Positions 15,131-60,732 of a DNA stretch of 64,000 bases are shown here, in pieces. Origin of the DNA: a virus (Duplodnaviria; Heunggongvirae; Uroviricota; Caudoviricetes); the IMG/VR virus record IMGVR_UViG_3300036828_000615, positions 1 to 64,000 of that record. The stretch is one strand, 5' to 3'. Made by a program: the position numbers and the translations under genes. Numbering within the stretch: position 1 is the first letter of the stretch; each line of letters opens with the position of its first letter. The notes beneath the pieces are model-generated. The model saw only the letters and a program-made list of their open reading frames with translations. It was not told the origin of the DNA and ran no database searches.

Positions 15131-15140
15131 AAGGAGAGCC

Positions 15141-16933: not shown

Positions 16934-16953
16934 CTGATTACTGCACGAAACCG

Positions 16954-31102: not shown

Positions 31103-31292
31103 TGACATTGACTTACCCCAGGTTTCAGCGGCAGAGTGACAGCGCACCTCTCACACCAGCCGTGATCAACCCTGCGCTCTGTCAGGTCATGGTAGAAACG
31201 CTGCCCCGTGGGAGGCAGTGGAGCTTCCGTGAGAAACCCCAATGTCCTTGTACGAGTCATCTGATAACTATATCTAAACGGGGCGTTGACTG

Positions 31293-31775
31293 ATGGCTGT
31301 CACCAGGGTTGCCGACCGGCAGGTCGTCGAAAGCATCGACCTGACCTCTGAGGTCGCCAACGTGCTGCCGATGGCCAACGGCGGCACCGGGGTCTCCGCT
31401 GCGGGCACCGCAGGCTTCGTGCTGACCTCCACCGGAACCGCCTGGGCCAGTAAGGCCGATGCGCCGAACGTCACGTCGACCGCGTCCTCGGCCACCCCGT
31501 CACTGACCGCGTGCGGCAACGATCAGTTGAACATCACCGCGCTGGCGGTCAACCTCACCGGCATCACCGTGACCGGCCCGGCGGTGGGATACAAGCTGAT
31601 CGTGCGGGTGAAGGACAACGGCACGTCGAGAACCTTCGCACCCGGCTCGTCGTTCCAGAGCTCCGATAACGCCGCAATGATCAGCGCCACCACGGTCGGC
31701 AAGACACACATCATGGGCTTCATCTACGACGAGGTGGCCGCCAAGTACGTCTGCGTCGCGGTCAACAGTTACTGA
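31293..31775 (+). CDS. minor tail / fibre protein (160 aa)
   Basis: Motif LPMANGGTGVSAAGTAG, typical of fibre N-termini. Confidence 0.6.
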   Translation: MAVTRVADRQVVESIDLTSEVANVLPMANGGTGVSAAGTAGFVLTSTGTAWASKADAPNVTSTASSATPSLTACGNDQLNITALAVNLTGITVTGPAVGYKLIVRVKDNGTSRTFAPGSSFQSSDNAAMISATTVGKTHIMGFIYDEVAAKYVCVAVNSY

Positions 31776-33442
31776 TGGCCACCGCTCAGTCGCGCGGCAC
31801 CAGTGTTGTCTCCACCAGCGGCACAACATGGGCCACCACCGCTAACGCCTGGGACGGCGCGGTAGGCACGAACCCAGCCACCTACGCCACCTTCACTAAT
31901 GCGGCCTCTGGTGGCGTCGGCACCATCGTTATCGGCGGGTACACGTTTGCCGGCCCCGTGATGGGCGCGACGATCAGCAGCGTCAGCGCCGCGATACGAA
32001 GTTTGGTCGCTACTACTTCGCGTTGGACTTCAGTTACGGTGCAATTACAGGATTCTACCGGCACCGCCATCGGCTCGGCGGCGACCGCGACACTGAGTAC
32101 GTCGGCGCACACGGACACATTGACGGTGGGCACACCGACCGACCTGCAGGTGTTCAATGGTCTGCGGGTGCTGGTGACAGCCACCCACAGCGGAACGGTA
32201 AGCTCCGTCTTCTCGCTCGACCAAGTCGACCTCACCGTCACCTACACGGCACCGCCGAAGGTGTCCACCTTCAGCGACAACTTCGCCACCCAGGACACCA
32301 CGAAATGGACGGGGTGGGGCGCCAACGCTTCGGTAGTAAATCAGCAATTGTCGCTGGTCGCTGCCCCCTCTAGTCCGGGGCAGATAACCAGTAACGCGGT
32401 TTACGATCTGACCGAGTCGTCTATTTACATCCGGGCTCTTCAGTTCGCCCAGTGTGCTACCAGCAACTACGTGCCGTTCCGGCTCGCTTCCCCCAACAAT
32501 GGTTACGGCGACTATATGGAGTGGGGCTACATTCCCAGCCCCACTAATGGCAACGCGATCGCAATTTCTGTGTACGTCAACGGAACCCAGGTCTATGTCA
32601 GCGCCTTCTACACCTACGACCCCGTCACCTTCGCGTGGCTGCGTTTTCGTCACACCGGGGGCGTGGTCTATTTCGATGCCAGCCCGGACTGTCTGACCTG
32701 GACGAACTGCGGCAGTTGGACCGTCAGCGGCACCACCGGCATGACCAATATGTATGTCGCGCTGCTCGGCGGACAGACCACCGGAACCATTACTGTTCCC
32801 AACACCATCTGGGACAACCTCAACACCCCGCCGGGTCCGAAGATCTCCACCTTCACCGACAACTTCGCGACCCAGGACGTCTCCAAGTGGGCGGGGTGGG
32901 GCTCCAACGCCTCCGTGTCCGGTGGGCAACTGGTGCTGCTCACGGCCGCTTCCGGGAGCGGCATCGTCACGTCCGTTGCCGTATATGACCTCACCGAGTC
33001 GGCGGTTTATGTCCAGGTTGTCCAGTTCGGGCAGGCTGCCACCACCCTGTACGCCCCTTTCCGGCTCACCAGTACCAATGGCCTGAATTATGTGGAGTGG
33101 GCTCGAAACGACAGTGGTGGCGCCCTGTACATGTCCGCCAGCGTGTTCATCAACAACAGCAACATCGTGTCGAACTTCTACGCGTACAACTCCACCAGTT
33201 TCGCGTGGCTGCGTATTCGACACACCGCGAACGTGATCTATTTCGATGCCAGCCCAGACGGTGTCACCTGGACGAACTACATGACCTGGACGAACACCAT
33301 CTTGGATATCACCCAGCTGGAGCTGGAGGTGTTCGGCGGCGCCAGCAGCGGCACTATCACCGTGAACAACACCATCTGGGACAACCTCAACGTCCCGCCC
33401 GCCCCGGCGGCGTCGCCGAGCGGATTCTTCGCACTGTTCTAA
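31775..33442 (+). CDS. tail protein with two tandem roughly 180-aa lectin-like domains
   Basis: Internal duplication: STFSDNFATQDTTKWTGWGANASV... versus STFTDNFATQDVSKWAGWGSNASV... Confidence 0.7.
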   Translation: MATAQSRGTSVVSTSGTTWATTANAWDGAVGTNPATYATFTNAASGGVGTIVIGGYTFAGPVMGATISSVSAAIRSLVATTSRWTSVTVQLQDSTGTAIGSAATATLSTSAHTDTLTVGTPTDLQVFNGLRVLVTATHSGTVSSVFSLDQVDLTVTYTAPPKVSTFSDNFATQDTTKWTGWGANASVVNQQLSLVAAPSSPGQITSNAVYDLTESSIYIRALQFAQCATSNYVPFRLASPNNGYGDYMEWGYIPSPTNGNAIAISVYVNGTQVYVSAFYTYDPVTFAWLRFRHTGGVVYFDASPDCLTWTNCGSWTVSGTTGMTNMYVALLGGQTTGTITVPNTIWDNLNTPPGPKISTFTDNFATQDVSKWAGWGSNASVSGGQLVLLTAASGSGIVTSVAVYDLTESAVYVQVVQFGQAATTLYAPFRLTSTNGLNYVEWARNDSGGALYMSASVFINNSNIVSNFYAYNSTSFAWLRIRHTANVIYFDASPDGVTWTNYMTWTNTILDITQLELEVFGGASSGTITVNNTIWDNLNVPPAPAASPSGFFALF

Positions 33443-33452
33443 GGAGGCAACG

Positions 33453-34016
33453 ATGCACCAGAGTGTGATGCAGTTCGTCTTCCGCACCCTGACCGCGCAG
33501 AACGTGGCGGCCACCAGGGTGCTGGAGGTGGGCAGCTACAACGTCAACGGGACCGTGCGCGAGTACGTCACCTCACTGGGACCCGAGGTCTACCTGGGGG
33601 TGGACGCGGCCGAGGGACCCGACGTGGACCAGGTGGTCAACTGCGAGCAACTGGTGAGGACCGTCGGCAAGGACTGGGATGTGGTGGTGTCCACCGAGAT
33701 GCTGGAGCACGTGCAGGACTGGTGGACCTGCCTGTCTCAGCTGGTGTACGCGGTCGCCCCGGGCGGGCTGCTGCTGGTCACCACCCGCGGCCCCGGCTTC
33801 CCGTATCACCCGTACCCCACCGACAACTGGCGCTTCACCGTCGAGCTGCTCGCCGATGCGCTGGACCGGATGATGCTGACGCGGGTGGTGTGTGAGTCCG
33901 ACCCCGAGGCGCCGGGCGTGTTCCTGCTGGCGCGTAAACCCCGCGACTGGTGCCTGACGCCGCGGCAGCTGGCAATGAACCTTGAGGGCCTGCACGCGCA
34001 GGCTATGACCGGATGA
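33453..34016 (+). CDS. class I SAM-dependent methyltransferase
   Basis: RBS taaggaggcaacgATG. Motifs VLEVGSYNVNG and VVVSTEMLEHV. Confidence 0.7.
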   Translation: MHQSVMQFVFRTLTAQNVAATRVLEVGSYNVNGTVREYVTSLGPEVYLGVDAAEGPDVDQVVNCEQLVRTVGKDWDVVVSTEMLEHVQDWWTCLSQLVYAVAPGGLLLVTTRGPGFPYHPYPTDNWRFTVELLADALDRMMLTRVVCESDPEAPGVFLLARKPRDWCLTPRQLAMNLEGLHAQAMTG

Positions 34017-34705
34017 AGCTGCGCCTGGTCTGCGCCACCCGCGGCTCCAAAGCCGCGTTCATGGCCGGGACGCATCTGGGCCGGTGCCTGCGTAACTTCC
34101 TGTGGCGCCAGGACTTCGAGGTCCAACTGTTCGCCGACAACACTCGCGGCCTACCCGTCGTCTACAACAAGGCCCTCGATGACGCCAGAGACGATCCGGC
34201 CACCCTGGTGTTCCTGCACGACGACGTGTACCTGGCCGACTACTTCTGGCCCGAGCGCCTCGCCGACGCGCTCATCAAGTTCGATGTCGTCGGGCTCGCC
34301 GGGCACACCCAGCGCGCGCTGGGCCAGACCACCTGGTTCGTCCCCGACGACGGACCGGCCGGTCTGCTGTCGGGCATCGTGGCACACGGGGAGGACCTGG
34401 GTGCGCAGATCAGCCTGTACGGCGCCGCGGGCAAGGAGTGCAAGCTAATGGACGGCCTGTTCCTGGCCGCCGAGTCGGCGACCCTGATCGAGCACGGCAT
34501 CCGGTTCGAGGAGGAGCTGGACTTCCACTTCTACGACCTGGACTTCTGCCGCCAGGTGGAGAAGGCCGGCCTGTCGATGGGCACCTGGTCCATCTCCGTC
34601 ATCCACCGCAGCGGCGGCCTGACCGAACCGGACGGCCGGTGGAACCGCAACCGCCAGATCTACCAGCGCAAATGGGGAGAGCCCGATGTCCTGCAAAGCT
34701 GGTGA
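34013..34705 (+). CDS. GT-A-type glycosyltransferase
   Basis: ATGA overlap. DxD-like FLHDDVYLAD. Confidence 0.55.
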   Translation: MKLRLVCATRGSKAAFMAGTHLGRCLRNFLWRQDFEVQLFADNTRGLPVVYNKALDDARDDPATLVFLHDDVYLADYFWPERLADALIKFDVVGLAGHTQRALGQTTWFVPDDGPAGLLSGIVAHGEDLGAQISLYGAAGKECKLMDGLFLAAESATLIEHGIRFEEELDFHFYDLDFCRQVEKAGLSMGTWSISVIHRSGGLTEPDGRWNRNRQIYQRKWGEPDVLQSW

Positions 34706-35103: not shown

Positions 35104-35760
35104 TCATCTCCTTTGTGAGAAGTCCTCGTTGGTGGGCGAGGCACTCTGGTTGTTCTCAATCGTGATCAGCGACTCCTTGAGGTGCCCGCACACCAGGCTG
35201 GAGTCGATCCACACTCCGAAGCCCTGCTCGCGTGCCCGTTTGCAGAACGACAGGTCGTGGCTGATCAGCGGGGGGACGGCTGTGAACATGGGGCCGTCGT
35301 CCCACTTCTCGAACACGCGGCGGTGGATGCTGGTGAACCCGAACCCGACCGAGTCGACCGGGTAGGCGGCGGGCCGCAGCGCCATCTCGCGCACCGCCTC
35401 CGGCGTCAGCGGCCGGTATCCGGCCTGGTCGCTGCATTCCATCCACGCCATCGCGTGATGCGGCGGCCGGTGCCCGAAGTACAGCGGGCCGACGATGTCG
35501 AAGTCGTCGGGGTAGTCGGCGATGGTGCGGAACGCCTGGGGTGGTGCGAGCATGTCGTGCTCGACGATGACCAGGCGGTCCCACTCGCCGAAGTTGCTCA
35601 TCGCGTCGTCGCGCAGGTTCTCCATCGCCTCCTCGACGTAGACGCCGTTGGTGGCGACCCAGCCGATGATGGGTGACTGGTCCATACCCAGCCAGCCGGT
35701 GAAGAACGCCGCCGAAAGATTCTTGTAGAGCGGGAATGCCACGATCAGTTTGCCGGTCAT
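35104..35760 (-). CDS. GT2-like glycosyltransferase (218 aa)
   Basis: ATGA overlap. Motifs LIVAFPLYKN and DRLVIVEHD. Confidence 0.5.
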   Translation of the reverse strand: MTGKLIVAFPLYKNLSAAFFTGWLGMDQSPIIGWVATNGVYVEEAMENLRDDAMSNFGEWDRLVIVEHDMLAPPQAFRTIADYPDDFDIVGPLYFGHRPPHHAMAWMECSDQAGYRPLTPEAVREMALRPAAYPVDSVGFGFTSIHRRVFEKWDDGPMFTAVPPLISHDLSFCKRAREQGFGVWIDSSLVCGHLKESLITIENNQSASPTNEDFSQRR

Positions 35761-36083
35761 GGGGTCGCCTTGGTCAGGTCGTCCCACGACGACACCTCGT
35801 CCCAGGTGGTGTAGTGCCCGCCGTGCTCGATGGTCATCACCCCCCAATCGTGGCTGTTGTCGGCGTCGACGAGATCGGTGCGTACCGCGACGGACAAAGT
35901 GTCCGGGTTCTGTTTGACCGCGCCAGCAATGTACTCCGGTGGTGTCGGCGTTGCCACGGGCGGCGGCGGGGCCGGCATATCCGCTGGCACCTGCGGCATT
36001 GTCGGCGCGGGTTCAACGGGCGGATCGACGTGTTTGGGCACCATCAACGCGGAGATGTCCGGCGGCTCGGCGGCTTGAGACAT
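35757..36083 (-). CDS. Pro-rich hypothetical protein (108 aa)
   Basis: RBS gaaaggtagtcATG. Confidence 0.5.
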   Translation of the reverse strand: MSQAAEPPDISALMVPKHVDPPVEPAPTMPQVPADMPAPPPPVATPTPPEYIAGAVKQNPDTLSVAVRTDLVDADNSHDWGVMTIEHGGHYTTWDEVSSWDDLTKATP

Positions 36084-36429: not shown

Positions 36430-39400
36430 TTACATGTAGGCGCGGATCCAGACTCCACCATCGCCACCCTTACCGCCAGGACCTGCGGCCAGCGCGTTGA
36501 AGTAACCCCAGATACCACCGCCGCCACCGCCGCCCGGAGCGTTCCCGTTGGCGCTGGCGGCGGGTTGTGCTCCACCGCCGTAGTAGATCCCGGCGTAACC
36601 GTCGGCACCCGTCAAGGGCTGGTTACCGGGTGAGAGCCCGGTAGTGGAGCCTGCTGCCGAGGAGCCGCCATTGGCGGTGATGGTGGTGTGCCCGGTCATG
36701 GCCACCTGCGATTGCGCGCCCGCACTGCCGCTGGGAAAGCCACCGCCGCCAGCACCGCCTATCCCGCCCGCGCCGATGGTGACGGTGAAGCTGGTGGTGC
36801 TGGTGGGGATGTCAACGCCATAGACGAGGGTCACCGGCGTCGCCCAGATTCCGGCACCACCGCCGACACCGTTGGACGGACCGCCGCCGCCCTGCCCGCC
36901 CATGCCCGCGCCGACCACCAGGATGTCGAAGTGGTTTCCCGCTTTCATCCACGACGGGACGCTGTAGGTGTAGGAGCCCGCCGCCGCGTACTGCGTCACA
37001 AGTGGTGCATAGGTCGTGGCCGCGGCCGCGCCGGACAGCGCCATCCATGGCACGGTCTGCGACCAGGTGGGGCTGGGGATGCTGCTGGGCGGCGCGGCCG
37101 GTGCCGGGTTGAGCGGGACGGCGACCGAGCCCCAGGACGCCGCCGACGAGAGCGTCGCCGAGATGGTGACGCTCGCCGCCCCCGCCGCGTCACCCATCAC
37201 ACACGAGCCGTAGCTGCTGGCACCGCTGGCGACGTTTTGGCGCTGAGTTTGGTTGTAGGCGCTCAACGTCAGAGACACGTTTGCCTGCACCACGCCGAAC
37301 ATCTGGACGATGCGACCACCTGTCGCACCGCTGGTCACGGTGTGTGACGGCGCTGCCGTTGACCCGTTTGCTGTTTGCGCCGTGCCGAACGACGCGACGT
37401 TCGTGTACGTGTCGACACCGACGCTGAGGTAGGCGGCGTCACTGGCGAGCGGGTTCGGTGTTGCGGTGGTGGTAATGGTCTGTGCCCCGGTGGGCGGGTT
37501 GATCAGCCCATACAGGGCCACGGTAGAGCAGACCCCGCCGACGGGACCGTACTGATACACACCGAGCTGGGCGAGGGTTGTGCTGCCGATCTTGCAGGAA
37601 ATCGTCGGTGCGCTAGTGGTGTTTGCTGCCGTGACGACGGTGACTCCGACGACAAGCGCGGTCGCGGTGGCGGCGATGGTGACATTGGTGTTCTGGGTGG
37701 CTGCCCCCGCGACCGCAACGTTGGTTCCAGCCGGGGCAGCGTCGATGGCGATGGTCCCGGCGCTGATGGCCCGCGTGACGGCGAGTTGCTTCGGGTACGC
37801 GGTGGGGTGGCCCGCGCTGGGCAGCCAGGCGTGGTTGATCCCGGCGAGGCTATAGGTGCCGGTGCCCGCGATGACCACCTCCATGGCGTAGTAGGTGTTC
37901 TGCTGCGCGGTGAGGTAGTTGGCAGCCGGGATCGCGAGGTTGACCCAGGTCGGCGACGATCCACCGAGAGTGATGTTGCCCACGACATTAGGTGACGCGT
38001 ACACCAGGGTCAGCGCCCCGGTGGAGCCGTTCATCGAGTAAATGTTGTAGTAGACGCCGGTGATGGTGGCCGGACCGTAACCCAGCCACTCCACGCTCTG
38101 CTTGACCCCGGCATCGGGGGTGCCGATGATTCCCATCGCGCTCTGGGCGGCGGTGACCGAGACGGTGGTGGCCGACGACGAGCCGCTAATGCTGGACAGC
38201 GGAAACACCGAATCGGCGGTGGGGTCGATCGCGTTGTAGGACGGCTTGGTCACCGCCCGGTTGTTCAAGCTGGTCTGGTTGGTGCCGGTGGTACCCGCGA
38301 CCGAGTTGGTGGGCGGCGTGGTCTGATTGCCGAAGTTGAACCCGAGGTAACCCATCGCCTGGTTGAACACCGACGCAAGCTGGCCGACCGCGTTGCCGCT
38401 GCCGGTACCACCCGTGACGCCCTGGATGGTCTTGTCGACAGTGGACTGAAACGCCGTGGTCACGTCGGTCAGCACGCCACCGATAGGGCTCTGCACATTA
38501 AGCCCAGGGATGAAGCTCCCCAGGGTGGGCTGGCTGTAGATCCTGGTCATCATGTCCTGCAGCCCGGCGAACAGGGAGCTGACCGGGTTGCCGGTGTTGG
38601 TACTACTGGCTGGGGTGCCGTTGATCGGGATGGCTATGCCGCCCCACAGGCTCGACGTGGTGCAGGAGAAGTTGACGCTGGCCGCGCCGGGTGCGTCGCC
38701 GATCACCAGCGGAAGCCCGGCCCCGGCGGTGAACGGCTGGTTGGACCGCTGCGTCTGATTGAACCCGGTGAGGTTGGTCGCGTATCCGCCGAACGCCGCC
38801 ACCACCCGGTCGTAGGAATTGGTGCCGCTCACCGTCAGGGACGGCGTGGTGTTGGTTGAACTGAAGGCGGTGACGGGAGTGCCGAACGACACCGCGCTGC
38901 TGAAGGACTCGGAGTTGATGGACATCGCTACAGAGTTCGATGCCGACGCATAGATCTGCTGGACTCCGGTGGGTGCGTTCTGCAGGACGAACGCAAAGAG
39001 GTAGAGGACGGGCGCCGAAGAATAGCTCACAGAGGCGACTTGCGTCATCAGCGGGCCGGACGACCCACCGATCCTCACGGTGAGAGTGCCTGGCGTATCG
39101 TACGTCGACACGAACACCACGGCGTTCGGGCCGGTGATGGTGTGGTTCTCGGTGACGACCGTGCTACTTAATTGGACACCGGCACCGACCGCGTCGAAAA
39201 CCACCGGAATAGCCGGTCTGCTCGCCCCGTACAGACCTTGGCTGAACAGGTCGGTGAGTGACTGGGCGTGGGTTTCCTCCACGCAGCGGACGTCGTCTAA
39301 GTAGTAGGTTTGGGCACCGGCATTCTGGCCGGAGAATCCGACTATGCCGCACGCTATATCGTATCCAGGGGGAATCTGCACCCACCCGGACATCTTCATC

Positions 39401-42400
39401 CACCCGGTTGTGGAAATCGCCGTAAAATTGACCGACTGCGCCCAGATGCTCGTTTGGACAGATCCGCCGGAGGCGTAATTAACGACGAAAACTCCGAGAT
39501 AGGCGCCTCCAGTCGTTGTGGTGTTGGTGGATTTGGCCCTGATGTACAGCTCGATGTTGAACCATTGTCCCGGCTGGCATCTCGTCATCGCGTCATAAAG
39601 CTGTGTTGTGACGGGGGTGGTGGGCGCAAAGAACACAACGTCGTACTGGGTGGATACGTCCGTGGAGGTCTGGACGGAATACGAATGAGTCCCGCTGTGT
39701 GCCTGGGCGGTCGTGTAGCCGAACGCCGCATCGACAGGGGTTCCGTAGCTGCCGGTGAAGCGCGTGACCGTGGTGTCCTCGAAGTCCGGGGAGAGCACCA
39801 GGTTGGTTCCGGAAGCCCTTGCGGCCTGCCACAGCGTCTGCGGCAGCAAGCCCGGCGACATCGCGTTGGCGAATGTGCCGGTGATGATCTTGGTGGCGTC
39901 CAGGCCGGGGATCCAGTTGGCGTTGGTGATGGCGTCGGTCAGCCTGCTGCCGCTCAAGCCACCCAGCCATGTCGAGGTCAGGGCCGGGATGATGTTCTGG
40001 TCGGTGATGGCCCCGGTCAGCCGGGTGCTATGGATGGTGTTGGTCCACGCGGAGGTGAGGGTTGGTATCCAGTTCTGGTTGGTGATGGCGCTGGACAGTT
40101 GGCTGCCCGCCAATGTCGCGGTGGTGATGGCGTTACGCAGCAACCCGCCGTCGACAGTGTTCACCCACGCCGACGTGAGGGCGGGGATGAAGTTCTGATT
40201 CGTGATCGCGGACGTGAGCTGGCTGCCCGCGATGCCGACGGCGACGTTGATGGCACCGGTCAGTAGGCTCCCATGGATGGTTCCGCCCCAGGTAGAGGTG
40301 AGCGCCGGTATCCAGTTCTGATTGGTGATGGCCGAGCCCAGTAGGTTGCCGGCGATCGTCTTGCCCCATGCCGAGGTCAAGGCCGGGATGACCGTCTGAT
40401 CGGTGATGGCACCGACGAGCTTGCTGGCGTGGAAGCTGTTGACCCAGGTGCTGGTCAGCGCCGGAATGATGTTTTGATCCGTGATGGCACCCAGCAGTTT
40501 CGCGCCGCTCAAGGTGCCCACCCACGTCGAGGTGAGCGCGGGAATGACGTTCTGGTCGGTGATCGCCCCGAACAGTTTGGACGCGTGAAGGGAGTTGACC
40601 CACGTGCTGGTCAGGGCCGGGATCACGTTCTGGTCCGTGATCGCGCCGACAAGCTTGGAGGCGTGGAATGTGTTGATCCAGGTCGAGGTCAGCGCGGGAA
40701 TGATGTTCTGATCGGTGATAGCCCCGGTCAGCCGCCAGCCGTGAATGGTTCCCGTCCAGGCGCTTGTCAGGGCCGGGATGATGTTCTGATCTGTGATGAG
40801 GCCCAGCAGCTTGCTGCCACTGAGAGTGCCCAGCCAGGTGGACGTCAAGGCCGGGATTACGTTCTGGTCGGTGATCGCGCCGACGAGCTTGGAAGCGTGA
40901 AAACTGTTGATCCATGTGCTGGTCAGCGCCGGGATGATGTTCTGGTCGGTGATGGCCCCAGTGAGCCGCCAGCCGTGGATGGTGCCGGTCCAGGCCGAGG
41001 TGAGCGCGGGGATGATGTTCTGATCGGTGATGAGACCGAGCAGCTTGCTGCCACTGAGGGTTCCGAGCCATGTCGACGTCAGCGCCGGTATGACGTTTTG
41101 GTCAGTGATGGCTCCGAACAACTTGGAGGCGTGTAGCGAGTTCACCCAGGTTGATGTCAGGGCGGGGATCACGTTCTGATCCGTGATCGCCCCGACGAGC
41201 TTGGAGGCGTGGAAGCTGTTGATCCACGTCGAGGTCAGCGCCGGAATGATGTTTTGATCGGTAATGGCCCCGGTCAAGCGCCACCCGTGGATCGTGCCCA
41301 GCCACGCGGACGTGAGAGCCGGGATCACGTTCTGATCCGTGATGAGACCCAGCAGCTTGCTGCCGCTCAGAGTGCCCAGCCACGTGCTGGTCAACGCGGG
41401 GATGACATTCTGATCGGTGATCGCACCGAACAGCTTGGAGGCGTGCAACGAGTTGACCCAGGTCGAGGTAAGCGCGGGAATGATGTTCTGATCGGTGATA
41501 GCCCCGGTTAGTCGCCACCCATGAATGGTCCCCAGCCACGCAGAGGTGAGGCTGGGGATGATGTTCTGGTCCGTGATCAGGCCGAACAGCTTGGACGAGT
41601 GAATCGAGTTGACCCATGTGCTGGTCAGGGCCGGGATGATGTTCTGATCGGTGATGGCGCCCAGGAGCCTGCTGCCGTGCAACGTCCCGAGCCATGAGGA
41701 CGTCAGGGCCGGGATGTGCAGCTGGTCGATGAGCTTGGTGATCGGGTCCATCGGGGCCAGCAGGTTGGCCGGATGAAGCATGTTGGTGATGAACGTGTTG
41801 ATCGCGGTCGTCACATCGAACGCGACATCGGAAAGGGTTGGCAGGCCCAGCATCGCGGTCAGGTTGCTGAAGTAAACGCTGGGGTCCAGCATGTTGTTGA
41901 CGAAGTTGTTGATCGCGTTCTCGATATCGAACGAGACATCTGCCAACGTGGGCAAGCCCAGCATCTCGGTGAGATTGTGGAAGAACGTGTCCAGCTGGGT
42001 GACGTTGAGGATGCCGCCCAGGCCGACCGAGTTGAGGATGGCCTGCAGGATGTCCTGCTGCGCCGAGGTGTCGATCACCGCGATGTCGTCGATGTAGACG
42101 ATGTCGCCGGTGGGGATGTCGCTCTCGAAGCGCAGGACGAAGTCGGCACTGTCGTAGTTGTAGGTGCTGGGCACGGTGACCTTGCCGCGCATCCAGGTCC
42201 ACTGGCCCGGTGTGGGCATCGTGATACGGGTGGCGCTCACCTCGGAGCTGGGGTCGGAGCCGCTGGACTCGGTGGCGATCATCACCAGGTCGAGATGCCC
42301 GGTGCCGGCGGTGGTGGTGGCCGTGTCGGGCCAGACGAACGCCTCGACGTCGAAGGTCTGCCCGGACTTCACGTACTGGGTCAGCGGACCCACCTGGTTG

Positions 42401-43251
42401 CGCAGCAGATGCCCGTCGCGGGTGGTGCCGTCCGCGGTGATCTTCATCGAGTGCGTGCCGGTGCGCGCGTGGTCGGTGGACTGCGTGCCCATGATCGCGC
42501 CGGGCCACACCAGCGTCGTCTCGAAGCTGGGGTCGAGCACCAGGTTCAGGCCGGTCCGCCAGTGCAGCATGAACATGTCGAAGCCGGTCAGCAGGTTCGT
42601 CGGCATCAGTTGGTGCTCAATGAAATTGATGATCGACGCGCCCGCATCAGTGAGGTCGGACAGCCAACCGGACGGGTTACCCAGGAAGGCGTAGAAGAAC
42701 CCGAACAGCTTCTGCACTTCGTCGTAGGATGCGGTCCCCGCCCCGAAGCCAAACGCGTTCATGATCGCGTCGATCAGGGACTGGACTGCTTCGGTCCCCC
42801 CGGCGATCAGGTCCAGCGCCAGGTTCTCCAGCGGGATGAACCCGGTCACGCCGCCGGAGTGGGTGGCGTCGGATACCAGTGTCGCCAGCAGGTTGCTCGG
42901 CTTGAGCATGTCCTCGATGAAGGTGACGATCGCGCCCACCGGATCGAAGTTCGGGTCCAGCGGGTTGAGTTCACCCAGGAATGTCCACAGGTTGGAGAAC
43001 ATCGAGGTGAGCTTGCTCCAGTCGGCGTTGAGCGTGGTGATGTCCACGCCGGGGAACAGGCTGCCGATGATCTTATCCACGATCGCCTGCAGCGCGTCCC
43101 AGATGACCTGGGCGGTGTTCTTGCCCAGCTTGCCGATGACGTCTTCGACACCCTGGTCGATCTGCTGGAGTGGATTCTTGTCGACCTTGAACAGGTTGGT
43201 GCCGGTCGCCGGGACTTGCCCGGAGAACAGGTCGATCGCGCCGAAGGCCAT
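36430..43251 (-). CDS. giant minor tail protein (2273 aa): about 23 tandem 26-aa repeats, CBM-like modules, Gly-rich C-terminus
   Basis: Repeat ITDQNIIPALTSTWVNSxHASKLFGA. N-terminal repeats of type F(I/V)xxML.P.NLL. C-terminal GGGGPSNGVGGGAG...GGGGGGGIWGYF. Confidence 0.85.
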   Translation of the reverse strand: MAFGAIDLFSGQVPATGTNLFKVDKNPLQQIDQGVEDVIGKLGKNTAQVIWDALQAIVDKIIGSLFPGVDITTLNADWSKLTSMFSNLWTFLGELNPLDPNFDPVGAIVTFIEDMLKPSNLLATLVSDATHSGGVTGFIPLENLALDLIAGGTEAVQSLIDAIMNAFGFGAGTASYDEVQKLFGFFYAFLGNPSGWLSDLTDAGASIINFIEHQLMPTNLLTGFDMFMLHWRTGLNLVLDPSFETTLVWPGAIMGTQSTDHARTGTHSMKITADGTTRDGHLLRNQVGPLTQYVKSGQTFDVEAFVWPDTATTTAGTGHLDLVMIATESSGSDPSSEVSATRITMPTPGQWTWMRGKVTVPSTYNYDSADFVLRFESDIPTGDIVYIDDIAVIDTSAQQDILQAILNSVGLGGILNVTQLDTFFHNLTEMLGLPTLADVSFDIENAINNFVNNMLDPSVYFSNLTAMLGLPTLSDVAFDVTTAINTFITNMLHPANLLAPMDPITKLIDQLHIPALTSSWLGTLHGSRLLGAITDQNIIPALTSTWVNSIHSSKLFGLITDQNIIPSLTSAWLGTIHGWRLTGAITDQNIIPALTSTWVNSLHASKLFGAITDQNVIPALTSTWLGTLSGSKLLGLITDQNVIPALTSAWLGTIHGWRLTGAITDQNIIPALTSTWINSFHASKLVGAITDQNVIPALTSTWVNSLHASKLFGAITDQNVIPALTSTWLGTLSGSKLLGLITDQNIIPALTSAWTGTIHGWRLTGAITDQNIIPALTSTWINSFHASKLVGAITDQNVIPALTSTWLGTLSGSKLLGLITDQNIIPALTSAWTGTIHGWRLTGAITDQNIIPALTSTWINTFHASKLVGAITDQNVIPALTSTWVNSLHASKLFGAITDQNVIPALTSTWVGTLSGAKLLGAITDQNIIPALTSTWVNSFHASKLVGAITDQTVIPALTSAWGKTIAGNLLGSAITNQNWIPALTSTWGGTIHGSLLTGAINVAVGIAGSQLTSAITNQNFIPALTSAWVNTVDGGLLRNAITTATLAGSQLSSAITNQNWIPTLTSAWTNTIHSTRLTGAITDQNIIPALTSTWLGGLSGSRLTDAITNANWIPGLDATKIITGTFANAMSPGLLPQTLWQAARASGTNLVLSPDFEDTTVTRFTGSYGTPVDAAFGYTTAQAHSGTHSYSVQTSTDVSTQYDVVFFAPTTPVTTQLYDAMTRCQPGQWFNIELYIRAKSTNTTTTGGAYLGVFVVNYASGGSVQTSIWAQSVNFTAISTTGWMKMSGWVQIPPGYDIACGIVGFSGQNAGAQTYYLDDVRCVEETHAQSLTDLFSQGLYGASRPAIPVVFDAVGAGVQLSSTVVTENHTITGPNAVVFVSTYDTPGTLTVRIGGSSGPLMTQVASVSYSSAPVLYLFAFVLQNAPTGVQQIYASASNSVAMSINSESFSSAVSFGTPVTAFSSTNTTPSLTVSGTNSYDRVVAAFGGYATNLTGFNQTQRSNQPFTAGAGLPLVIGDAPGAASVNFSCTTSSLWGGIAIPINGTPASSTNTGNPVSSLFAGLQDMMTRIYSQPTLGSFIPGLNVQSPIGGVLTDVTTAFQSTVDKTIQGVTGGTGSGNAVGQLASVFNQAMGYLGFNFGNQTTPPTNSVAGTTGTNQTSLNNRAVTKPSYNAIDPTADSVFPLSSISGSSSATTVSVTAAQSAMGIIGTPDAGVKQSVEWLGYGPATITGVYYNIYSMNGSTGALTLVYASPNVVGNITLGGSSPTWVNLAIPAANYLTAQQNTYYAMEVVIAGTGTYSLAGINHAWLPSAGHPTAYPKQLAVTRAISAGTIAIDAAPAGTNVAVAGAATQNTNVTIAATATALVVGVTVVTAANTTSAPTISCKIGSTTLAQLGVYQYGPVGGVCSTVALYGLINPPTGAQTITTTATPNPLASDAAYLSVGVDTYTNVASFGTAQTANGSTAAPSHTVTSGATGGRIVQMFGVVQANVSLTLSAYNQTQRQNVASGASSYGSCVMGDAAGAASVTISATLSSAASWGSVAVPLNPAPAAPPSSIPSPTWSQTVPWMALSGAAAATTYAPLVTQYAAAGSYTYSVPSWMKAGNHFDILVVGAGMGGQGGGGPSNGVGGGAGIWATPVTLVYGVDIPTSTTSFTVTIGAGGIGGAGGGGFPSGSAGAQSQVAMTGHTTITANGGSSAAGSTTGLSPGNQPLTGADGYAGIYYGGGAQPAASANGNAPGGGGGGGIWGYFNALAAGPGGKGGDGGVWIRAYM
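39900..41725. repeat. 78-bp tandem coding repeats with higher-order (3-unit) organisation
   Basis: At least 22 near-identical 78-bp units encoding the 26-aa repeat. Three sub-types recur in order: VNSLHASKLFG / LGTLSGSKLLG / LGTIHGWRLTG. Confidence 0.85.
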
Positions 43252-43254: not shown

Positions 43255-44763
43255 TCAGACCTCGGCGAGCCGCCGGGTCGCCGCAGCGGGCGCGAACGTG
43301 CTCGGTTCGCTGACCGGGGTGACCTGTACGAACACCTGTGCGTCGGTCGGGTTGAACTGGTATAAACCTATAGCCCCATCGTTATAGAGATTGACGTAGA
43401 TCACGGCCGCGGTGTTGAGCGGCACCACCGCCATGCCGTTGGTCGGGTTCAGCGCATCCGACGGGCTGTTCGGCGTGGAGTAGTGCGGCATGATGTTGAC
43501 CTCGCCCAGCGTGTTACCGAAGCCCCGCGCGATGAGCTGGCCGGCGGTCGGGTCGTTGAGCAGGATCTCGCAGCCGACGGTCAGCGGATTGGGTGTCAGC
43601 TCCACTCCGAACGCACCGACGTGGCCCCAGCAGATCGGGGTGTAGGGGAACGGCTGCGGCGGGATCTGGAACGAACCGATCGCCGCGCGCTGGCTGATGC
43701 CCGAGAACGAGGTGAAGGCGTTCTCGGGCATCGAGTACGGCGAGGGGATCAGCTGGCTGATGCTCACCGGCACCCACAGCGGATAGGTGACCAGGGCGCC
43801 GCCCGAAGACGGCGGGCTGGCGGAAACGCCGGCCCCGCCGGTGTCGGTGAAGTTCGTCGTCGAGCCGCTCGACACCGCGCCCGCCCGGGTGGTGTAGGTG
43901 CCCGGGGTGGTGGTGCGGTAGATGTGATAACCCGTCGCCGAGGGGACGGGGTTCCACGAGAGCACTCCCGAGCCGTTGGTTCCCGACGTGGTGATCGACA
44001 CCGCCGCGCCGGGGATGGACTCGCCGGCCGGGCTGATGGTGGTCACCACGTACTCGTAGGTGTTGGCCGCCAGCGAGCCTCCGGTCGAGGAGGCCACCGC
44101 CGTGAGCCCCGAGGGCGGTGCCAGTCCCAGGCTCACCGTGCGTCCGGTGTAGCCCAGCACGTCGCCGGGTTCGGGCGGGTTGGTCGTCAGGTCCACATCC
44201 GGGCAGCTGTAGAGCGCGGCGGACGGACCGACCGGGCCCAGCGGGATCGCCAGGTCCATGTGCCAGGTGGGTTCCAGCGGAGTGCCGCCGGTGATGACAT
44301 CACTGGAGGAATCCGGCGGGATCACCGCGACGGTGGGGGTGATGATCGGGCACGGCCCAGGCGGGCCGGGGCTGCCCAGCATGACCCGGCGCCAGCTCGA
44401 TCCGTACCAGACGTAGGCGCTCGCGCCGATGATGGCGCCGCTGGCCGCCACGTCGTCCATCAGCCAGAACTTGCCGATGTCGGCGACGGTGTTGCCCAGC
44501 GTCTCGGGCAGCTCGCTGGGGGTGTCGATGGTCATGTCGGTCTGCAGCCGCAGCGCGAACGCGGCCGGGCCGGGCGGCCCCTGACCGCCCACCACCGCGG
44601 GCATCACCATCGCGCCGATGTCGGAGTAGATCTCGTAGGTCGCCCCGAACGGGGAGGTGGACTCCGGTGGGATGACCGACCCGAACAGGTAGGTGCCGAC
44701 CAGGTAGGACGCCAGGTAACTCTCGTCGGCGCCGGCCGGGACGGTGGGGACAGACGTGGTCAT
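43255..44763 (-). CDS. minor tail protein (502 aa), paralogue of the next gene
   Basis: Shares IPPQPFPYTPICWGHVGAFGVELTPNPLTVGCEILLNDP...GEVNIMPHYST with gp44774. Contains GPPGP motifs. Confidence 0.8.
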   Translation of the reverse strand: MTTSVPTVPAGADESYLASYLVGTYLFGSVIPPESTSPFGATYEIYSDIGAMVMPAVVGGQGPPGPAAFALRLQTDMTIDTPSELPETLGNTVADIGKFWLMDDVAASGAIIGASAYVWYGSSWRRVMLGSPGPPGPCPIITPTVAVIPPDSSSDVITGGTPLEPTWHMDLAIPLGPVGPSAALYSCPDVDLTTNPPEPGDVLGYTGRTVSLGLAPPSGLTAVASSTGGSLAANTYEYVVTTISPAGESIPGAAVSITTSGTNGSGVLSWNPVPSATGYHIYRTTTPGTYTTRAGAVSSGSTTNFTDTGGAGVSASPPSSGGALVTYPLWVPVSISQLIPSPYSMPENAFTSFSGISQRAAIGSFQIPPQPFPYTPICWGHVGAFGVELTPNPLTVGCEILLNDPTAGQLIARGFGNTLGEVNIMPHYSTPNSPSDALNPTNGMAVVPLNTAAVIYVNLYNDGAIGLYQFNPTDAQVFVQVTPVSEPSTFAPAAATRRLAEV

Positions 44764-46633: not shown

Positions 46634-47328
46634 GGCTTCCTTTCCGCGCAGTCAGGACAGGACTGGCCGGGTTCCAGCTCGCGTTTGCACACCGAGCACA
46701 CCCACTCCTCGGTGATCGTCGGGGTCACCGACCAGGGCGACGCGAGCTGCTGGCCCCGGTCGCCGTCGCGCATCGCGGCCAGCCGACGGGTGTCGGGCGG
46801 CAGGTGATGCTCGGTGGAACGGTGGTGCGGCAGCAGTTCGCCGGCGGCGTCGTCGGGCGCGCGCACGTCCACATAGGTGTAGGCACCCTCATAACAGCCC
46901 GGCGCCGTGTACGGGCGCTTCTTGACGTAGACGTGCGCGGAGCGCCGGAACCCCAGCAGCGCCAGCGTCCAGGCGATCGCCACCTTCGGCTGGGTCATAT
47001 AGACACCGGACAGATCGACGGTGTGCCCGTCGGGGTCGGTGGGATAGTCCAGCGCCTGATAGATCTCGAGGTAGGCGGCCTGCACCTTGAGCATCTCCTG
47101 GGCGAGTTTGCGCTCCTGCCCGGTCAGCCCGGCCGCCTCGATGGTCTTGTGCGTCAGCTCGCCGTGCTCGCCGAACTGCAGCAGGGGTGCCTGGCCGGCG
47201 TAGTCGTCGGCCGAGGAGCTCGGGGTGTAGCGGGAGTCGGGCCGCGCGTTACGCGCGCCGACGTCACGCGGCTGACCCTCGACGATCGGGGGGTGCCCAT
47301 TTTTGGGCACCGGGTGCTCAGGCGCCAT
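46630..47328 (-). CDS. hypothetical tail-associated protein with C-terminal zinc ribbon
   Basis: ATGA overlap. C-terminal CSVCKRELEPGQSCPDC. Confidence 0.55.
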   Translation of the reverse strand: MAPEHPVPKNGHPPIVEGQPRDVGARNARPDSRYTPSSSADDYAGQAPLLQFGEHGELTHKTIEAAGLTGQERKLAQEMLKVQAAYLEIYQALDYPTDPDGHTVDLSGVYMTQPKVAIAWTLALLGFRRSAHVYVKKRPYTAPGCYEGAYTYVDVRAPDDAAGELLPHHRSTEHHLPPDTRRLAAMRDGDRGQQLASPWSVTPTITEEWVCSVCKRELEPGQSCPDCAERKP

Positions 47329-47878
47329 GGCCGCTCCTTGGACGCTGAGCCGCGATGGCTCGCATCCGCTCCCGGTTACGTGTGCGCTGGCATTCGCGGC
47401 AGATCCTCGAGGTCACCCCGGTTTTCTTATTCAGATACAGGTAGGTGTTCTCCGGCGTGTACTCATGCCTGAGCGGGCAGTGCGTCTTGTTGGTGTTGCG
47501 GTTGGTGCCGTGCACCTGCTGGTCCTGCGCGTTTTCGGTCTTGGTTCCCCACGAGAGGTTGTCCAGCCGGTTGTTCGCCGGGTCGCGGTCGGGGAAGTGA
47601 CGGCACTCCAGCCCCGGCGGGCACGGTCCCACGAACGCCTCCAACGCCAGCCGGTGCACATAGTGGCGCTCCTGCACGTTGCAGCTGGACAGCACCACGA
47701 TCAGGTGCCCCTCTTTGGTCTGTGGGTAGGGCTTGAGCAGCCGCCCGCAGTGCATGGCCGTGCCGCCGCCGCGCACCCGGCGCGGATGCGGCAATGACCG
47801 CACCCTGCCCAGGTCGCTGACTTCGTAGAGCCCTTCGAATCCCACTACCGGCAACCACCGCTCGTTGTAATCATCCAT
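47318..47878 (-). CDS. HNH homing endonuclease (NUMOD4 plus HNH_3) inside the tail gene cluster
   Basis: Motifs YEVSDLGRVRSL and HFPDRDPANNRLDNLSWGTKTENAQDQ. Confidence 0.8.
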   Translation of the reverse strand: MDDYNERWLPVVGFEGLYEVSDLGRVRSLPHPRRVRGGGTAMHCGRLLKPYPQTKEGHLIVVLSSCNVQERHYVHRLALEAFVGPCPPGLECRHFPDRDPANNRLDNLSWGTKTENAQDQQVHGTNRNTNKTHCPLRHEYTPENTYLYLNKKTGVTSRICRECQRTRNRERMRAIAAQRPRSGHGA

Positions 47879-47924: not shown

Positions 47925-49868
47925 TTATGCCTCGAAAATAGTGCCTTCGCCAGCTACCTCACTGATCAGGCTGTAGACCGCGCCGATGGTCTTGAACGCG
48001 GCGGCGAACGGATCGCCCTTGTGCTTGTCCTGGCCGATCTTGAGGCTCACCGTCAGTGGCTTGTCCCAGCTCCACTCCCGCTTGATGCCGTAGACGTTGT
48101 CGACGTAAATGATCCCGTTCTCCTCGAAGCCGACCCGATCTCCCAGGTAGTAGTCGTAGTCGGCGATCCACGGCATCCCGTCGATGGCGTCGGCCTTGAA
48201 CGCGACGAACGTGCGGGTCTTCCAGTTCCCGTCGCGCAGGGTGAGCACCGACGCGAGCGTGTAGGCGGTGCCCGAGCCCTGCTCGAAGTGCTCCTGCCAG
48301 GCCACGTCGCCGCCATAGAGGGCGCGGACCGGATCAGTGAATCTTTGCCAGGCCAATAATGTATTATCAAGCTGCCCCTGGTACAAGTTGTCAAGTCCCG
48401 CACCGATCGGCGCGCTGCCCACTTGTCCGAACAGGCCCTCGGTAATCACCAGCTGGAGCTGAGACAGTCCGTAGCGGATGGCGAAGGTCTGCGCCTGGTT
48501 GACCAGCACCGGGGATTTGGAGCCGGTCATGATCGTCTTGGGCGAACCCTTGTGCCAGGTCAGATCGGAATTGATGATGCCGTTGTAGGTCGAGTCCCAC
48601 CAGATGACCTTCGGTGGCGCCGGTGCCACGTCGAGCAGCGTGGAGATCAGCGTGGACTGGTCGATGCCCGCCGCGTCGGCCAGCGGCTCGCCGTTCAGGA
48701 TGGCCGCCGGGTCGTAGACCTTTCCGCTGCCCAGGTCATAGCTGATCGGGGTGATCAGGTCGTCCAGCGTCACCGCCACCGTGGACAGGAATCCATCGGC
48801 CGCGGTTCCGCTCGGGCCGGTGACGCCGTCCTTCTGCTCGAAGGCGAACACGCAGCAGTTGCGCTGCGGGGCGGCCAGCTTGTCGAGGTTGCTCTTGAGG
48901 TTGTTGGTGTCGACGCCCAGGTTGTTCAGCGTGTCGGGGATGGTGTTGAGCAGCCCCGCCAGCTCGCCGTTCGGCGAGTCCGGGTCGGTCTTGAGGTAGG
49001 TGTAGACCCGCATGATGCAGCCGGCGTCATTCAGGATGTCCTTGAACGAGTCGTACCAGTTCTTCCAGGTCGCGCCGACCGCGCTCCACCGCGACTGGTC
49101 GAACAACGGGTCCACGAACGCCACCTGGATCGGCCAGGCGGTCGGCAGGAAGTTGGTCAGCGCGTCGGCGTTGAGCGGGTCGATCCAGCCGAACGGGTTC
49201 AGCGCGTTGGTGATCGTCGACCAGCCCGGCATGAACAGCCGGGCCAGGTTGATGAAGGCGCTCACCATGCAGATGGTGCGCACCGGTCCGGGCAGCACCC
49301 ACATGCGCGGCAGCTGGATCTCCGGCGGGAAGATCGGGTTGGCCGCGATCAGCAGGCGCTTGGCGTGCTCGAAGAAACTCAGGGCGGTCAGCTCGATCTC
49401 GTGAACGCCCTTGTCGTCCTTCTTGACGTGGATCTCGGTGATCTTGCCGCCCCAGCGTTTGCGCCAGTCCTGCTGCGTGGGGATCGGGTCGATGAGCAGG
49501 TGCAGGTCGGCGACCAGGTGGGTCTGGTTGGTCATGTAGTCGGTGAGCCAGTTGTCGTAGGTGATCTTCACCGAGCACTTGCCGGTGTCGTCCATCAACT
49601 CCTCGACGCTCACGTCGACCTCGCCGTCGAGCTCCTGCATGACGTCGAGGTTGTTGTCGGCCAGCCGGATCAGCGGCTTGTTCTTGGCCGCCATCAGCGT
49701 GGTCAGCCGCACGCCCTCGAGATAGGTCGCGGCCGCCACCGGTTGGGTCAGCGGCGGTTCCCCGGCGACCCCGGGAATCGGCAGAAACGACTGCACCCAG
49801 CTGGTCAGCTTCATCCCGGCCGTGCTGGCAGTCGGCAGGCCGAGAATGTCCTGTAGCGCCTGGCTCAT
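47925..49868 (-). CDS. minor tail protein (647 aa)
   Basis: Large protein with balanced composition, located in the distal tail gene block. Confidence 0.75.
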   Translation of the reverse strand: MSQALQDILGLPTASTAGMKLTSWVQSFLPIPGVAGEPPLTQPVAAATYLEGVRLTTLMAAKNKPLIRLADNNLDVMQELDGEVDVSVEELMDDTGKCSVKITYDNWLTDYMTNQTHLVADLHLLIDPIPTQQDWRKRWGGKITEIHVKKDDKGVHEIELTALSFFEHAKRLLIAANPIFPPEIQLPRMWVLPGPVRTICMVSAFINLARLFMPGWSTITNALNPFGWIDPLNADALTNFLPTAWPIQVAFVDPLFDQSRWSAVGATWKNWYDSFKDILNDAGCIMRVYTYLKTDPDSPNGELAGLLNTIPDTLNNLGVDTNNLKSNLDKLAAPQRNCCVFAFEQKDGVTGPSGTAADGFLSTVAVTLDDLITPISYDLGSGKVYDPAAILNGEPLADAAGIDQSTLISTLLDVAPAPPKVIWWDSTYNGIINSDLTWHKGSPKTIMTGSKSPVLVNQAQTFAIRYGLSQLQLVITEGLFGQVGSAPIGAGLDNLYQGQLDNTLLAWQRFTDPVRALYGGDVAWQEHFEQGSGTAYTLASVLTLRDGNWKTRTFVAFKADAIDGMPWIADYDYYLGDRVGFEENGIIYVDNVYGIKREWSWDKPLTVSLKIGQDKHKGDPFAAAFKTIGAVYSLISEVAGEGTIFEA

Positions 49869-60343: not shown

Positions 60344-60732
60344 ATGAAGTTGTACGTCGGGCGGATGGTGTCGATGCGCGGGAACACGATCGGCGCATCC
60401 CCGGCCGGACCACCCGGTATCGGGGTGAACACGAACAGCTCCGCGTCGGTGTACGGATCGCCCGCGCTGCCGTCGGCGTTGCGGTGCGCATAGGAGTGCT
60501 CCCAGCGCGACTTGGGCGGCTCGGGTGCGCTCGGCGCCGTCGGCGGAATGAATTCCTCCGGCGGCACCGGGTCCTCCGGCGGCGGGATCGGGATGAACTC
60601 CTCGGGTTCGCGTGCCGCGGCCACACCGTTGGTGGTCGCGGCGCCGTTGGTGCCGTTGGTGCTAACCCGCTTCGCCGCCTTGCGTGGTGCCGTGGTGCGT
60701 GGCGCCGGCTTACGCTTGGCGGCGACCGTCAT
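60157..60732 (-). CDS. tail assembly chaperone (G-like)
   Basis: Lies between the major tail gene and the TMP. Pro-rich. Its 3' end overlaps the next ORF by 187 nt. Confidence 0.65.
   Translation of the reverse strand: MTVAAKRKPAPRTTAPRKAAKRVSTNGTNGAATTNGVAAAREPEEFIPIPPPEDPVPPEEFIPPTAPSAPEPPKSRWEHSYAHRNADGSAGDPYTDAELFVFTPIPGGPAGDAPIVFPRIDTIRPTYNFMWKLRKFDQVQMSLEWMDLARVPDRVQERVTLLPDIEQARFFEGWFAPAVSPQTQVGPPGES

Follow-up and report, generated by a model that had tools for sequence, protein, structure and literature searches.

The window, a stretch of 64,000 nucleotides (nt) covering positions 1 to 64,000 of the IMG/VR virus record IMGVR_UViG_3300036828_000615, belongs to an uncultured siphovirus whose tail proteins appear, by sequence, to be related to those of Mycobacterium and Gordonia phages. 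On its minus strand it encodes a tail protein of 2273 amino acids (aa), the middle part of which is built from tandem repeats of 26 aa. The account that we consider the more probable one is that this protein is a modular, most likely homotrimeric fibre, whereby the repeat array serves as a long-lived structural spacer shaft that is exchanged as a cassette. The observed anatomy of the gene and its product, listed from the N-terminus and including two modules resembling carbohydrate-binding modules (CBM) and regions modelled with AlphaFold2 (AF2; confidence given as pLDDT, the predicted local distance difference test), was as follows:

36430..43251, minus strand: whole gene, an open reading frame for the 2273-aa modular tail fibre or tail-spike-class minor tail protein, matching PHROG 346/416/553 (minor tail protein)
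42577..43251, minus strand (aa 1-225): N-terminal domain, presumed to serve attachment, family-conserved, with the first two F..ML.P.NLL helical motifs (aa 111 and 210)
42052..42558, minus strand (aa 232-400): CBM-like module 1 (LVLDPSFETT...), Pfam CBM_4_9 (PF02018), E=0.0033
41734..42051, minus strand (aa 401-506): linker with two F..ML.P.. motifs (aa 450 and 487), ending at the conserved junction FITNMLHPANLLAPM, which is the BLASTN boundary at gene nt 1505
40252..41733, minus strand (aa 507-1000): regular array of 19 in-register 26-aa units of sub-types A, B, C and D
39931..40251, minus strand (aa 1001-1107): degenerate array end with three more 26-aa units and two half-units of 14-15 aa (..IAGSQLTSA and ..LAGSQLSSA)
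39853..39930, minus strand (aa 1108-1133): canonical unit IPGLDATKIITGTFANAMSP (IPGLDATKI type; also given as IPGLDATKIITG), where homology to the ortholog resumes at gene nt 3341
39277..39834, minus strand (aa 1140-1325): CBM-like module 2 (LVLSPDFEDTT...), from BLASTP to module 1 and from Foldseek
38587..39261, minus strand (aa 1331-1555): beta-rich domain with AF2 strands at pLDDT 55-70, common to the homologues P0002 and P0022
37762..38463, minus strand (aa ~1597-1830): Bxb1 gp29-like spike-body domain, from the family profile, BLASTP, tblastn and Foldseek
37063..37704, minus strand (aa 1850-2063): second beta-rich domain and best-predicted part of the model (AF2 pLDDT 70-84), PHROG 553/9784/356 minor tail families
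36436..36981, minus strand (aa 2091-2272): glycine-rich C-terminal domain, Pfam Gly_rich_2 (PF21722), E=1.5e-17, 64.8 bits against a cutoff of 24.3

The array itself extends over aa 507-1107 and comprises 22 units of the Trp-containing (W) type plus two half-units. This agrees with an earlier sequence-only reading of the same DNA, which had located the repeats at about residues 510-1110 and estimated their number at about 23, the figure reached when the canonical terminal unit is added to the 22. In the Ile-Pro register, the consensus is IPALTSTWxGTxHGSxLxGAITDQNx, with I1, P2, L4, T5, S6, W8, L17 and I21 invariant and Trp8 present in 22/22 of the W-type units. A degenerate 32-nt unit pattern found 19 matches in comparison with 0 expected in shuffled sequences. 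The units fall into four sub-types, and not into three cycling ones as had been supposed: A (VNSLHASKLFG), B (LGTLSGSKLLG), C (LGTIHGWRLTG) and D (INSFHASKLVG), with 85-88% identity between A and D, and with His at the canonical Asp position in A, C and D. Their order is x-A-C-A-B-C-D-A-B-C-D-B-C-D-A-B-D, so that the same type recurs five times at a lag of three units and five times at a lag of four. Therefore, Tandem Repeats Finder (TRF) reported at 40373-41716 not only the basic period of 78 bp (17.2 copies) but both super-periods, 234 bp (5.6 copies, 72% matches) and 312 bp (2.2 copies, 80% matches). Past aa 1000, the regularity gives way to a 15-aa half-unit, a unit, a 14-aa half-unit and two units, followed by the canonical unit. 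The degenerate F(I/V)xxML.P.NLL repeats noted earlier in the N-terminal part were also recovered, as an F(I/V)xx(M/Q)LxP motif at aa 111, 210, 450 and 487. No Pfam family matches the array; apparent hits to DUF1543, Ribosomal_L9_C, HEAT_PBS and others contained zero passing stretches and represented noise summed over the repeats.

The whole shaft proved to have been replaced in a close relative, P0002 (2168 aa; IMG/VR UViG 3300036785_000484, positions 10001-16507 of the related phage locus L001; also found in SRR11833744). BLASTN against its gene aligned nt 242-1505 at 89% and nt 3341-6822 at 91%, with no alignment between them, and the unalignable stretch (aa 502-1113, 612 aa) is precisely the repeat array. 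Its counterpart in P0002 has 511 aa, in which modules of ~55 aa are scattered between canonical IPGLDATKIISG units that are ~18 aa long, whereby the LDASKI units and the ~55-aa modules together make up ~147-aa super-repeats over aa 496-1015. Both junctions of this exchange are conserved in the family: the left one reads FITxMLHPANLLAP and the right one IPGLDA(T/S)KIIxGTFANxMSPGLLPQ, the latter always standing before a CBM2-type module, likewise in P0004/L010. A profile of the N-terminal domain recovered ten IMG/VR loci (the close relative and nine distant ones; complete genes of 1092-2168 aa), which have the anchor in common and differ in their shafts, CBMs and tips, the tips being either Gly-rich or DUF7257. 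The IPxLTxxW units number 0-3 in these family members versus 22 here. Neither IMG/VR nor the metagenome contigs nor 1.84 billion representative proteins yielded the array a second time, and the metagenome contigs gave no match to its flanks either. The two minor tail genes upstream are 42-71% identical between the two phages, in comparison with ~90% in the flanks of the fibre gene; this lower identity of the neighbours is ordinary phage mosaicism.

At the DNA level, the units of the array are far more diverse than their peptides. Within one sub-type they are 92-100% identical as peptide and 63-90% as DNA, and across the array the unit-to-unit DNA identity ranges from 56 to 90%, with a few pairs at 90%. 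Units 611, 715 and 793, for example, encode the same 26 residues with 12-18 nt differences (15-23%), including switches between the serine codons AGC and TCG. The pooled within-type proportion of synonymous differences (pS) was 0.54, and identical residues were encoded by the same codon in a fraction of 0.55 within sub-types and 0.50 overall. Independent draws from the codon usage of the phage's tail genes would give 0.576 +/- 0.024, and 0/2000 simulations were as low as observed. As a calibration, the flanks of the gene share the codon with the nearest relative at 85-89% of identical residues. Rare codons are enriched in the array, as for the Asp codon GAT (62% vs 11% in the background). Adjacent units are the most different (same-codon fraction 0.43), which is only suggestive once the sub-type is controlled for (P~0.04). 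Exact DNA repeats reach 38 nt at most, and self-matches peak at 91% for 100-nt and 87% for 150-nt windows. The array is thus old and long-lived, and its codons are randomised. Moreover, the internal repeats of the different shaft in P0002 are equally codon-randomised (same-codon fraction 0.50 at 67-82% amino acid identity), which suggests that the randomisation is common to the shafts of the gene family and not peculiar to one array. A GATC density in the array twice that of the whole window was dropped from consideration since GATC is over-represented throughout the window (442 vs 204 expected).

These observations bear on a different view of the array, namely that it is a recently amplified, copy-number-variable DNA repeat in which slippage or unequal recombination tunes the fibre length and the host range. 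The view has a precedent in Clg55 of corynephage CL31, the tandem-repeat length of which differs between plaques (PMC8002715). Its repeats have been proposed to serve in matching the fibre to the envelope of the host; there, and in the tail-gene DNA repeats of Brevibacterium phages, the repeat region lies, as here, in an actinophage minor tail protein with a carbohydrate-binding-type domain. It also draws on the TRF super-units of 234 and 312 bp, on the few unit pairs with 90% DNA identity and on the 38-nt exact repeat. However, length variation between plaques implies near-identical DNA units in Clg55, whereas the units here are codon-scrambled (56-90% identity, no exact repeat longer than 38 nt). 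The synonymous sites are saturated or over-dispersed (0.50-0.55 vs 0.576; pS ~0.54), as compared with 0.85-0.89 for the flanks against the relative, so the recent amplification suggested by the sequence-only reading is contradicted by units of identical peptide that differ at 15-23% of their nucleotides and by a same-codon fraction at or below the random expectation. Nor does the array look like a hot-spot of copy-number change: with a longest exact repeat of 38 nt and 150-nt windows of at most 87% identity, there is little substrate for slippage, and the array has no second copy in any of the collections searched. The sole close relative differs by cassette replacement and not by copy number. 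We therefore consider recent amplification unlikely. What survives of the suggested tuning is an adjustment of shaft length and type between relatives by module exchange, while the slippage route does not. An error of short-read assembly that lengthened or collapsed the array is highly improbable. Repeats are a classic source of error in metagenome assembly, and only one contig carries the exact gene; against this, no two units are alike in their DNA, the reading frame runs open through 6.8 kb and both flanks are colinear with an independent relative. Because of the same short exact repeats and limited self-matches (91%/87% for 100-/150-nt windows), short reads and ordinary k-mers resolve the array.

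An exhaustive HMMER search of the 1.84 billion representative proteins revealed no other long arrays of the unit. With a limit of E<=1e-3, it returned 54 matches, of which none fell below 1e-30 and the best covered only the degenerate 3' units; matches to LRR, HEAT and low-complexity proteins (P0028, P0033 and P0032) were spurious on inspection. The informative matches in a phmmer search with the array were LDASKI-type fibre proteins with IPxLDASKIxSG. Among them, P0031 has eight tandem 26-aa units of the form IPALTxxxIPNLDASKINSGTFDxAR, and P0013-P0016 have IPSLTSAWTGTIDASKISG units, the P0013-type ones sharing an IPSLTSAW.GTI stretch with the array. When 16 distinct units were compared with 7 units of P0031 by hhalign, the alignment ran in register and without gaps over 21 columns (probability 75%, E=2.5e-5). 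Because of this in-register match, the unit is, as far as its sequence tells, a Trp-containing variant of the widespread IPALTxxx-IPxLDASKIxSGxxxxx fibre unit, with His or Ser for the canonical Asp. The metagenomic LDASKI/IPALT arrays (P0031, P0013-P0016) have the 26-aa period and the order of sub-motifs in common with the array here, whereas they consist of 3-8 units, keep Asp-Ala-Ser-Lys and have neither a 22-unit array nor a cycle of four sub-types.

The canonical motif leads further to the R1/R2 pyocin fibres 6CL5/6CL6, which it matches at IPGLDASKLVSGVLAEQRLP, at the N-terminus of the crystallised fragments (E=0.018 from P0031 and E=4.5e-5 from the family profile). This pyocin segment is the 'Rod'. 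It consists of four helix-plus-turn motifs, has little regular secondary structure and forms a homotrimer whose chains interdigitate extensively; the authors of the structures considered that such repeats let the fibre length be adjusted (PMC6116203). The Rod (Buth et al., 2018) has the motif IPGLDASK(L/I)xSGxxxxxx(I/L)P in common with the canonical terminal unit here and with the units of the relatives, and it is a repetitive thin connector between fibre domains, as the array here likewise seems to be. In comparison, the Rod contains one unit (29 aa, four helix-plus-turns), whereas here 22 tandem 26-aa variant units carry Trp8 and His or Ser for Asp, so that the similarity is one at the motif level; the match may be taken as a lead to the fold, not as proof. 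The repeat region does lie where a shaft would lie, in line with the fibre shaft supposed in the sequence-only reading. A triple beta-helix rises by ~0.6 A/residue, and built in this way, the 627 residues of the shaft (aa 507-1133) would measure ~37 nm. With the geometry of the pyocin Shaft (93 A for 70 residues; PMC6116203), they would measure ~83 nm.

The two CBM-like modules recognised earlier are real and mutually paralogous (BLASTP E=8e-11, 27% identity over 189 aa). Module 1 scored 18.2 bits for CBM_4_9, below the cutoff of 25.9, and module 2 gave no hit to that family; the equivalent of module 1 in P0005 passes at 27.2 bits. Local Foldseek matches of module 2, obtained on a model of pLDDT ~60, were CBM4 1GUI, CelK CBM4 3P6B and CBM16 2ZEW (probability 1.0, root-mean-square deviation 3.2-4.2 A over ~100-110 columns, E 0.04-0.06). 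The N-terminal domain is 36-65% identical to the N-termini of P0003-P0010, P0014 and P0025, the rest of which differs. At the other end, the homologies of the C-terminal modules are direct observations. The C-terminal family profile matched the PDB chain 9D93_Pa, 'Tail spike, gp29', by hmmsearch with E=6.7e-20 (three chains in the entry), and pairwise BLASTP aligned aa ~1597-1830 with residues 166-374 of gp29 (E=2e-5, 23% identity); Bxb1 gene 29 is annotated in GenBank as tail spike. With the AF2 model of aa 1134-2273, for which pLDDT was 70-84 at aa ~1683-1813 and ~1853-2063, the best PDB neighbours in Foldseek were the Douge central fibre gp20 (8ZDP, E=7e-8) and Bxb1 gp29, and the viral structure library gave dozens of matches to minor tail proteins of Mycobacterium and Gordonia phages, down to E=3e-17. 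By tblastn, only minor tail or tail spike genes of Mycobacterium phages (74) were found, covering 5-11% of the protein; megablast of the fibre gene against 50,697 phage genomes gave no match. BLASTP detected no internal duplication of the two C-terminal beta-rich domains. The Gly-rich C-terminus announced by the sequence-only reading corresponds to the Gly_rich_2 domain.

In the mycobacteriophage Douge, domains of both the fibres and the baseplate bind glycans of mycobacteria, and it is the central fibre that touches the cell first (PMC13033339), and in BPs and Muddy, single tail-spike substitutions alter the trehalose polyphleate dependence and the host range (PMC10465359). Because of these findings, the distal half of the protein is, by analogy, most likely its receptor-binding end. 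With Bxb1 gp29 (9D93) and Douge gp20 (8ZDP), the protein has in common the spike-body homology, the Gly-rich C-terminus, beta-rich distal domains and modules of glycan-binding type; both solved relatives are trimeric. As in mycobacteriophages with annotated spikes, including BPs gp22 and Muddy gp24, the gene is the last or near-last large one of the tail operon. In contrast to Bxb1 gp29 and Douge gp20, the protein is 3-4 times longer, has an unrelated N-terminal domain and two intercalated CBM modules, and contains the 627-aa repeat shaft, which the solved proteins do not have; moreover, its gene does not adjoin the hub gene.

Several results weigh against a trimeric spacer fibre of this kind. 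Most units have neither the Asp nor the second Ile-Pro of the canonical motif, and the link to the pyocin Rod runs via a short motif and intermediate sequences; phmmer with the whole protein, the last units and sub-fragments against PDB sequences found nothing. The AF2 monomer of eight units reached a pLDDT of only 47.9, with one 11-residue strand per unit, and the model of aa 1134-2273 was moderate as well (mean pLDDT 53). The N-terminal 235 aa had no similarity to Bxb1 gp29 (best E=0.24), and the profile of the N-terminal domain had no relative in PDB (best E=0.11, talin). The gene is not placed 1-2 genes past the hub as are those of the central fibres in Douge, Claus, Corndog and Mysterious: the HNH endonuclease gene and three minor tail genes (232, 619 and 502 aa) lie between hub and fibre; in Bxb1, three small genes intervene. 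PDB searches with the two minor tail proteins upstream gave nothing that would tell a central from a side fibre. Finally, with an invariant Trp and frequent His in each unit, the shaft itself could bind ligands.

The last point can be extended to the view that the repeats form a multivalent ligand-binding surface, on which Trp and His bind envelope glycans, lipids or metal ions. Trp8 in 22/22 units, and His at the canonical Asp position in A, C and D, would suit such a role; many surface domains of Douge bind glycans (PMC13033339), and fibres of the pyocin and T4 type bury metal ions held by His from three chains (PMC6116203). However, the array has no similarity to any lectin or CBM family, it is flanked by dedicated CBM modules, and invariant aromatics are equally expected in the buried core of a trimer, so that we regard ligand binding as the main role of the repeats as improbable. 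Somewhat less remote, and still rather unlikely in our estimation, is a monomeric fold as a beta-solenoid or beta-helix in which every 26 aa make one coil, similar to tailspikes or LbetaH proteins. The AF2 monomer is strictly periodic, with its single strand per unit, a length of 26 residues per coil falls in the range of known beta-helices, and the non-significant PDB neighbours of the model were the beta-helix proteins GlmU, hemolysin A and the CBA120 tailspike. Against it stand the low confidence of that model (pLDDT 47.9) and a fold search in which no neighbour came at E<0.1 or at a probability >0.05. Moreover, the motif to which the unit aligns builds, in a solved fibre, a trimeric rod of low secondary structure, and the homologous C-terminal spike module is trimeric in Bxb1.

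In the preferred reading of a modular fibre with an exchangeable spacer shaft, the protein would be the largest distal tail protein of the siphovirus, composed in order of an N-terminal attachment domain, a CBM, the long shaft, a second CBM, the Bxb1-gp29-like body and the glycine-rich tip. Its trimeric state, rod fold, rod length and spacer function are proposed by analogy with the solved fibres. The shaft (aa 507-1133) would be a rod of fixed length, ~35-85 nm, keeping the distal glycan- or receptor-binding modules off the baseplate-proximal ones. Purifying selection would keep each sub-type nearly invariant, which would fit a tightly packed, interdigitated rod, and the synonymous sites, fully randomised by drift or driven to maximal dissimilarity, would leave a DNA that is poor for slippage and recombination. 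Diversity among related phages would then arise via whole-shaft swaps at the junctions ...NLLAP on the N side and IPGLDATKIxxGTFANxMSPGLLPQ on the C side.

A bolder extension, which we offer as doubtful, is that selection works on the array at two levels: that the four nearly invariant peptide sub-types in their fixed A-B-C-D order constitute a register code and that the codons are actively diversified against recombinational deletion. Such a code could make three long chains zip into a ~70-nm rod without a slip by one unit, and the codon diversification may be nature's equivalent of the 'codon scrambling' applied to synthetic genes with repeats.

The coding frame and the genomic context of the gene are consistent with its assignment. 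Many overlapping ORFs of high GC content surround it; 36430..43251 is recognised as the coding frame because of its GC profile over the three codon positions (GC1/2/3 = 0.53/0.53/0.85), and the ATG start codon is right because the N-terminus, MAFGAIDLFSG, agrees with the N-termini of homologues. An identical protein (P0001) is present in the protein collection on an 86.9-kb JGI contig, the sole contig with the exact gene. That the product is a tail protein, as the sequence-only reading had stated, is borne out by its PHROG minor-tail matches and by its position as the last large gene of a siphovirus tail operon. The other features of the window considered here are:

60729-61328, minus strand: major tail protein
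between the genes for the major tail protein and the tape measure protein, minus strand: tail assembly chaperone gene
51624-59765, minus strand: tape measure protein, 2713 aa
50452-51627, minus strand: Dit
47925-49868, minus strand: hub, Sipho_Gp37
47318-47878, minus strand: HNH homing endonuclease (PHROG 1492, E=2e-63), in the tail operon between the hub and minor tail genes
43255-44763, minus strand: minor tail protein just upstream of the fibre gene, with GPPGP collagen-like stretches
35104-35847 (minus strand), 34013-34705 (plus strand) and 33453-34016 (plus strand): two glycosyltransferase-like genes and an S-adenosylmethionine (SAM) methyltransferase gene, directly downstream of the fibre gene
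29486-33442, plus strand: three genes convergent with the tail operon, for 160 aa (weak tail-fibre PHROG), 555 aa and 538 aa (Thr/Ala/Gly-rich, DUF5907 repeat)
26042-28510, minus strand: LysA endolysin, 822 aa, with GH19 chitinase-like and Peptidase_C39_2 domains
17449-17499: 11-bp unit GATAGCCTTTC in 4.6 copies with 92% matches, inside the replication-initiator gene 16735-18042
6215-8014, minus strand: phage-encoded Ro60 homologue (TROVE E=1e-40, vWA_Ro60 E=1e-49)

At ~1.5 A/residue, the tape measure protein would correspond to a tail of ~400 nm, unusually long for a siphovirus. The related phage locus L001 has an HNH gene at the same place (5675-6298, NUMOD4/HNH_3). The product of 43255-44763 contains an insertion of ~120 aa (aa ~209-327, with a weak Fn3-like match), which is absent from its 374-aa counterpart at L001 8865-9989. 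At the site of the glycosyltransferase and methyltransferase genes, L001 has two 88-aa genes instead, and the former may represent a virion-glycosylation cassette gained beside the fibre gene. The convergent gene trio looks fibre-like and is kept in the related phage. The GATAGCCTTTC repeats are iteron-like and may mark the origin. No Y-RNA or any other Rfam family was detected at gathering score anywhere in the window.

Regarding the host, a scan of the ORFs next to LysA revealed no LysB-type esterase, and a mycolic-acid-containing host is therefore not established. The host is probably an actinobacterium, judging from sequence relationships. Since no relative of the array or of its flanks was found in the 185,579 GTDB genomes, the virus is probably lytic, with an actinobacterial host that has been seen in metagenomes alone.

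The kind of protein is an established one, since repetitive shafts, CBMs and Gly-rich tips are familiar from other tail fibres. What sets the present case apart is the protein's size, the array of 22 Trp-variant units with four sub-types in a recurring order, which has no second example in the databases searched, the clean replacement of the shaft cassette in the sister phage and the complete, possibly over-dispersed randomisation of codons. For the reading of repeats in general, the array is a caution that near-identical peptide repeats need not mean recent amplification or instability of the DNA. If the codon diversification is selected, it would provide a natural design rule for stable repetitive genes, and if the register code and the active diversification are true, the same codon pattern in the ortholog could make them a general rule for phage fibre shafts. 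In addition, the array offers a very regular 26-aa shaft unit that has neither a Pfam model nor a solved structure. Tail fibres and spikes set the host choice of phages and are the main target for host-range engineering in phages of mycobacteria and their relatives. For this group, the protein is an example of a fibre built from exchangeable modules (anchor, CBM, shaft cassette, CBM, spike and Gly-rich tip), with two conserved junction motifs at which nature exchanges the shafts.

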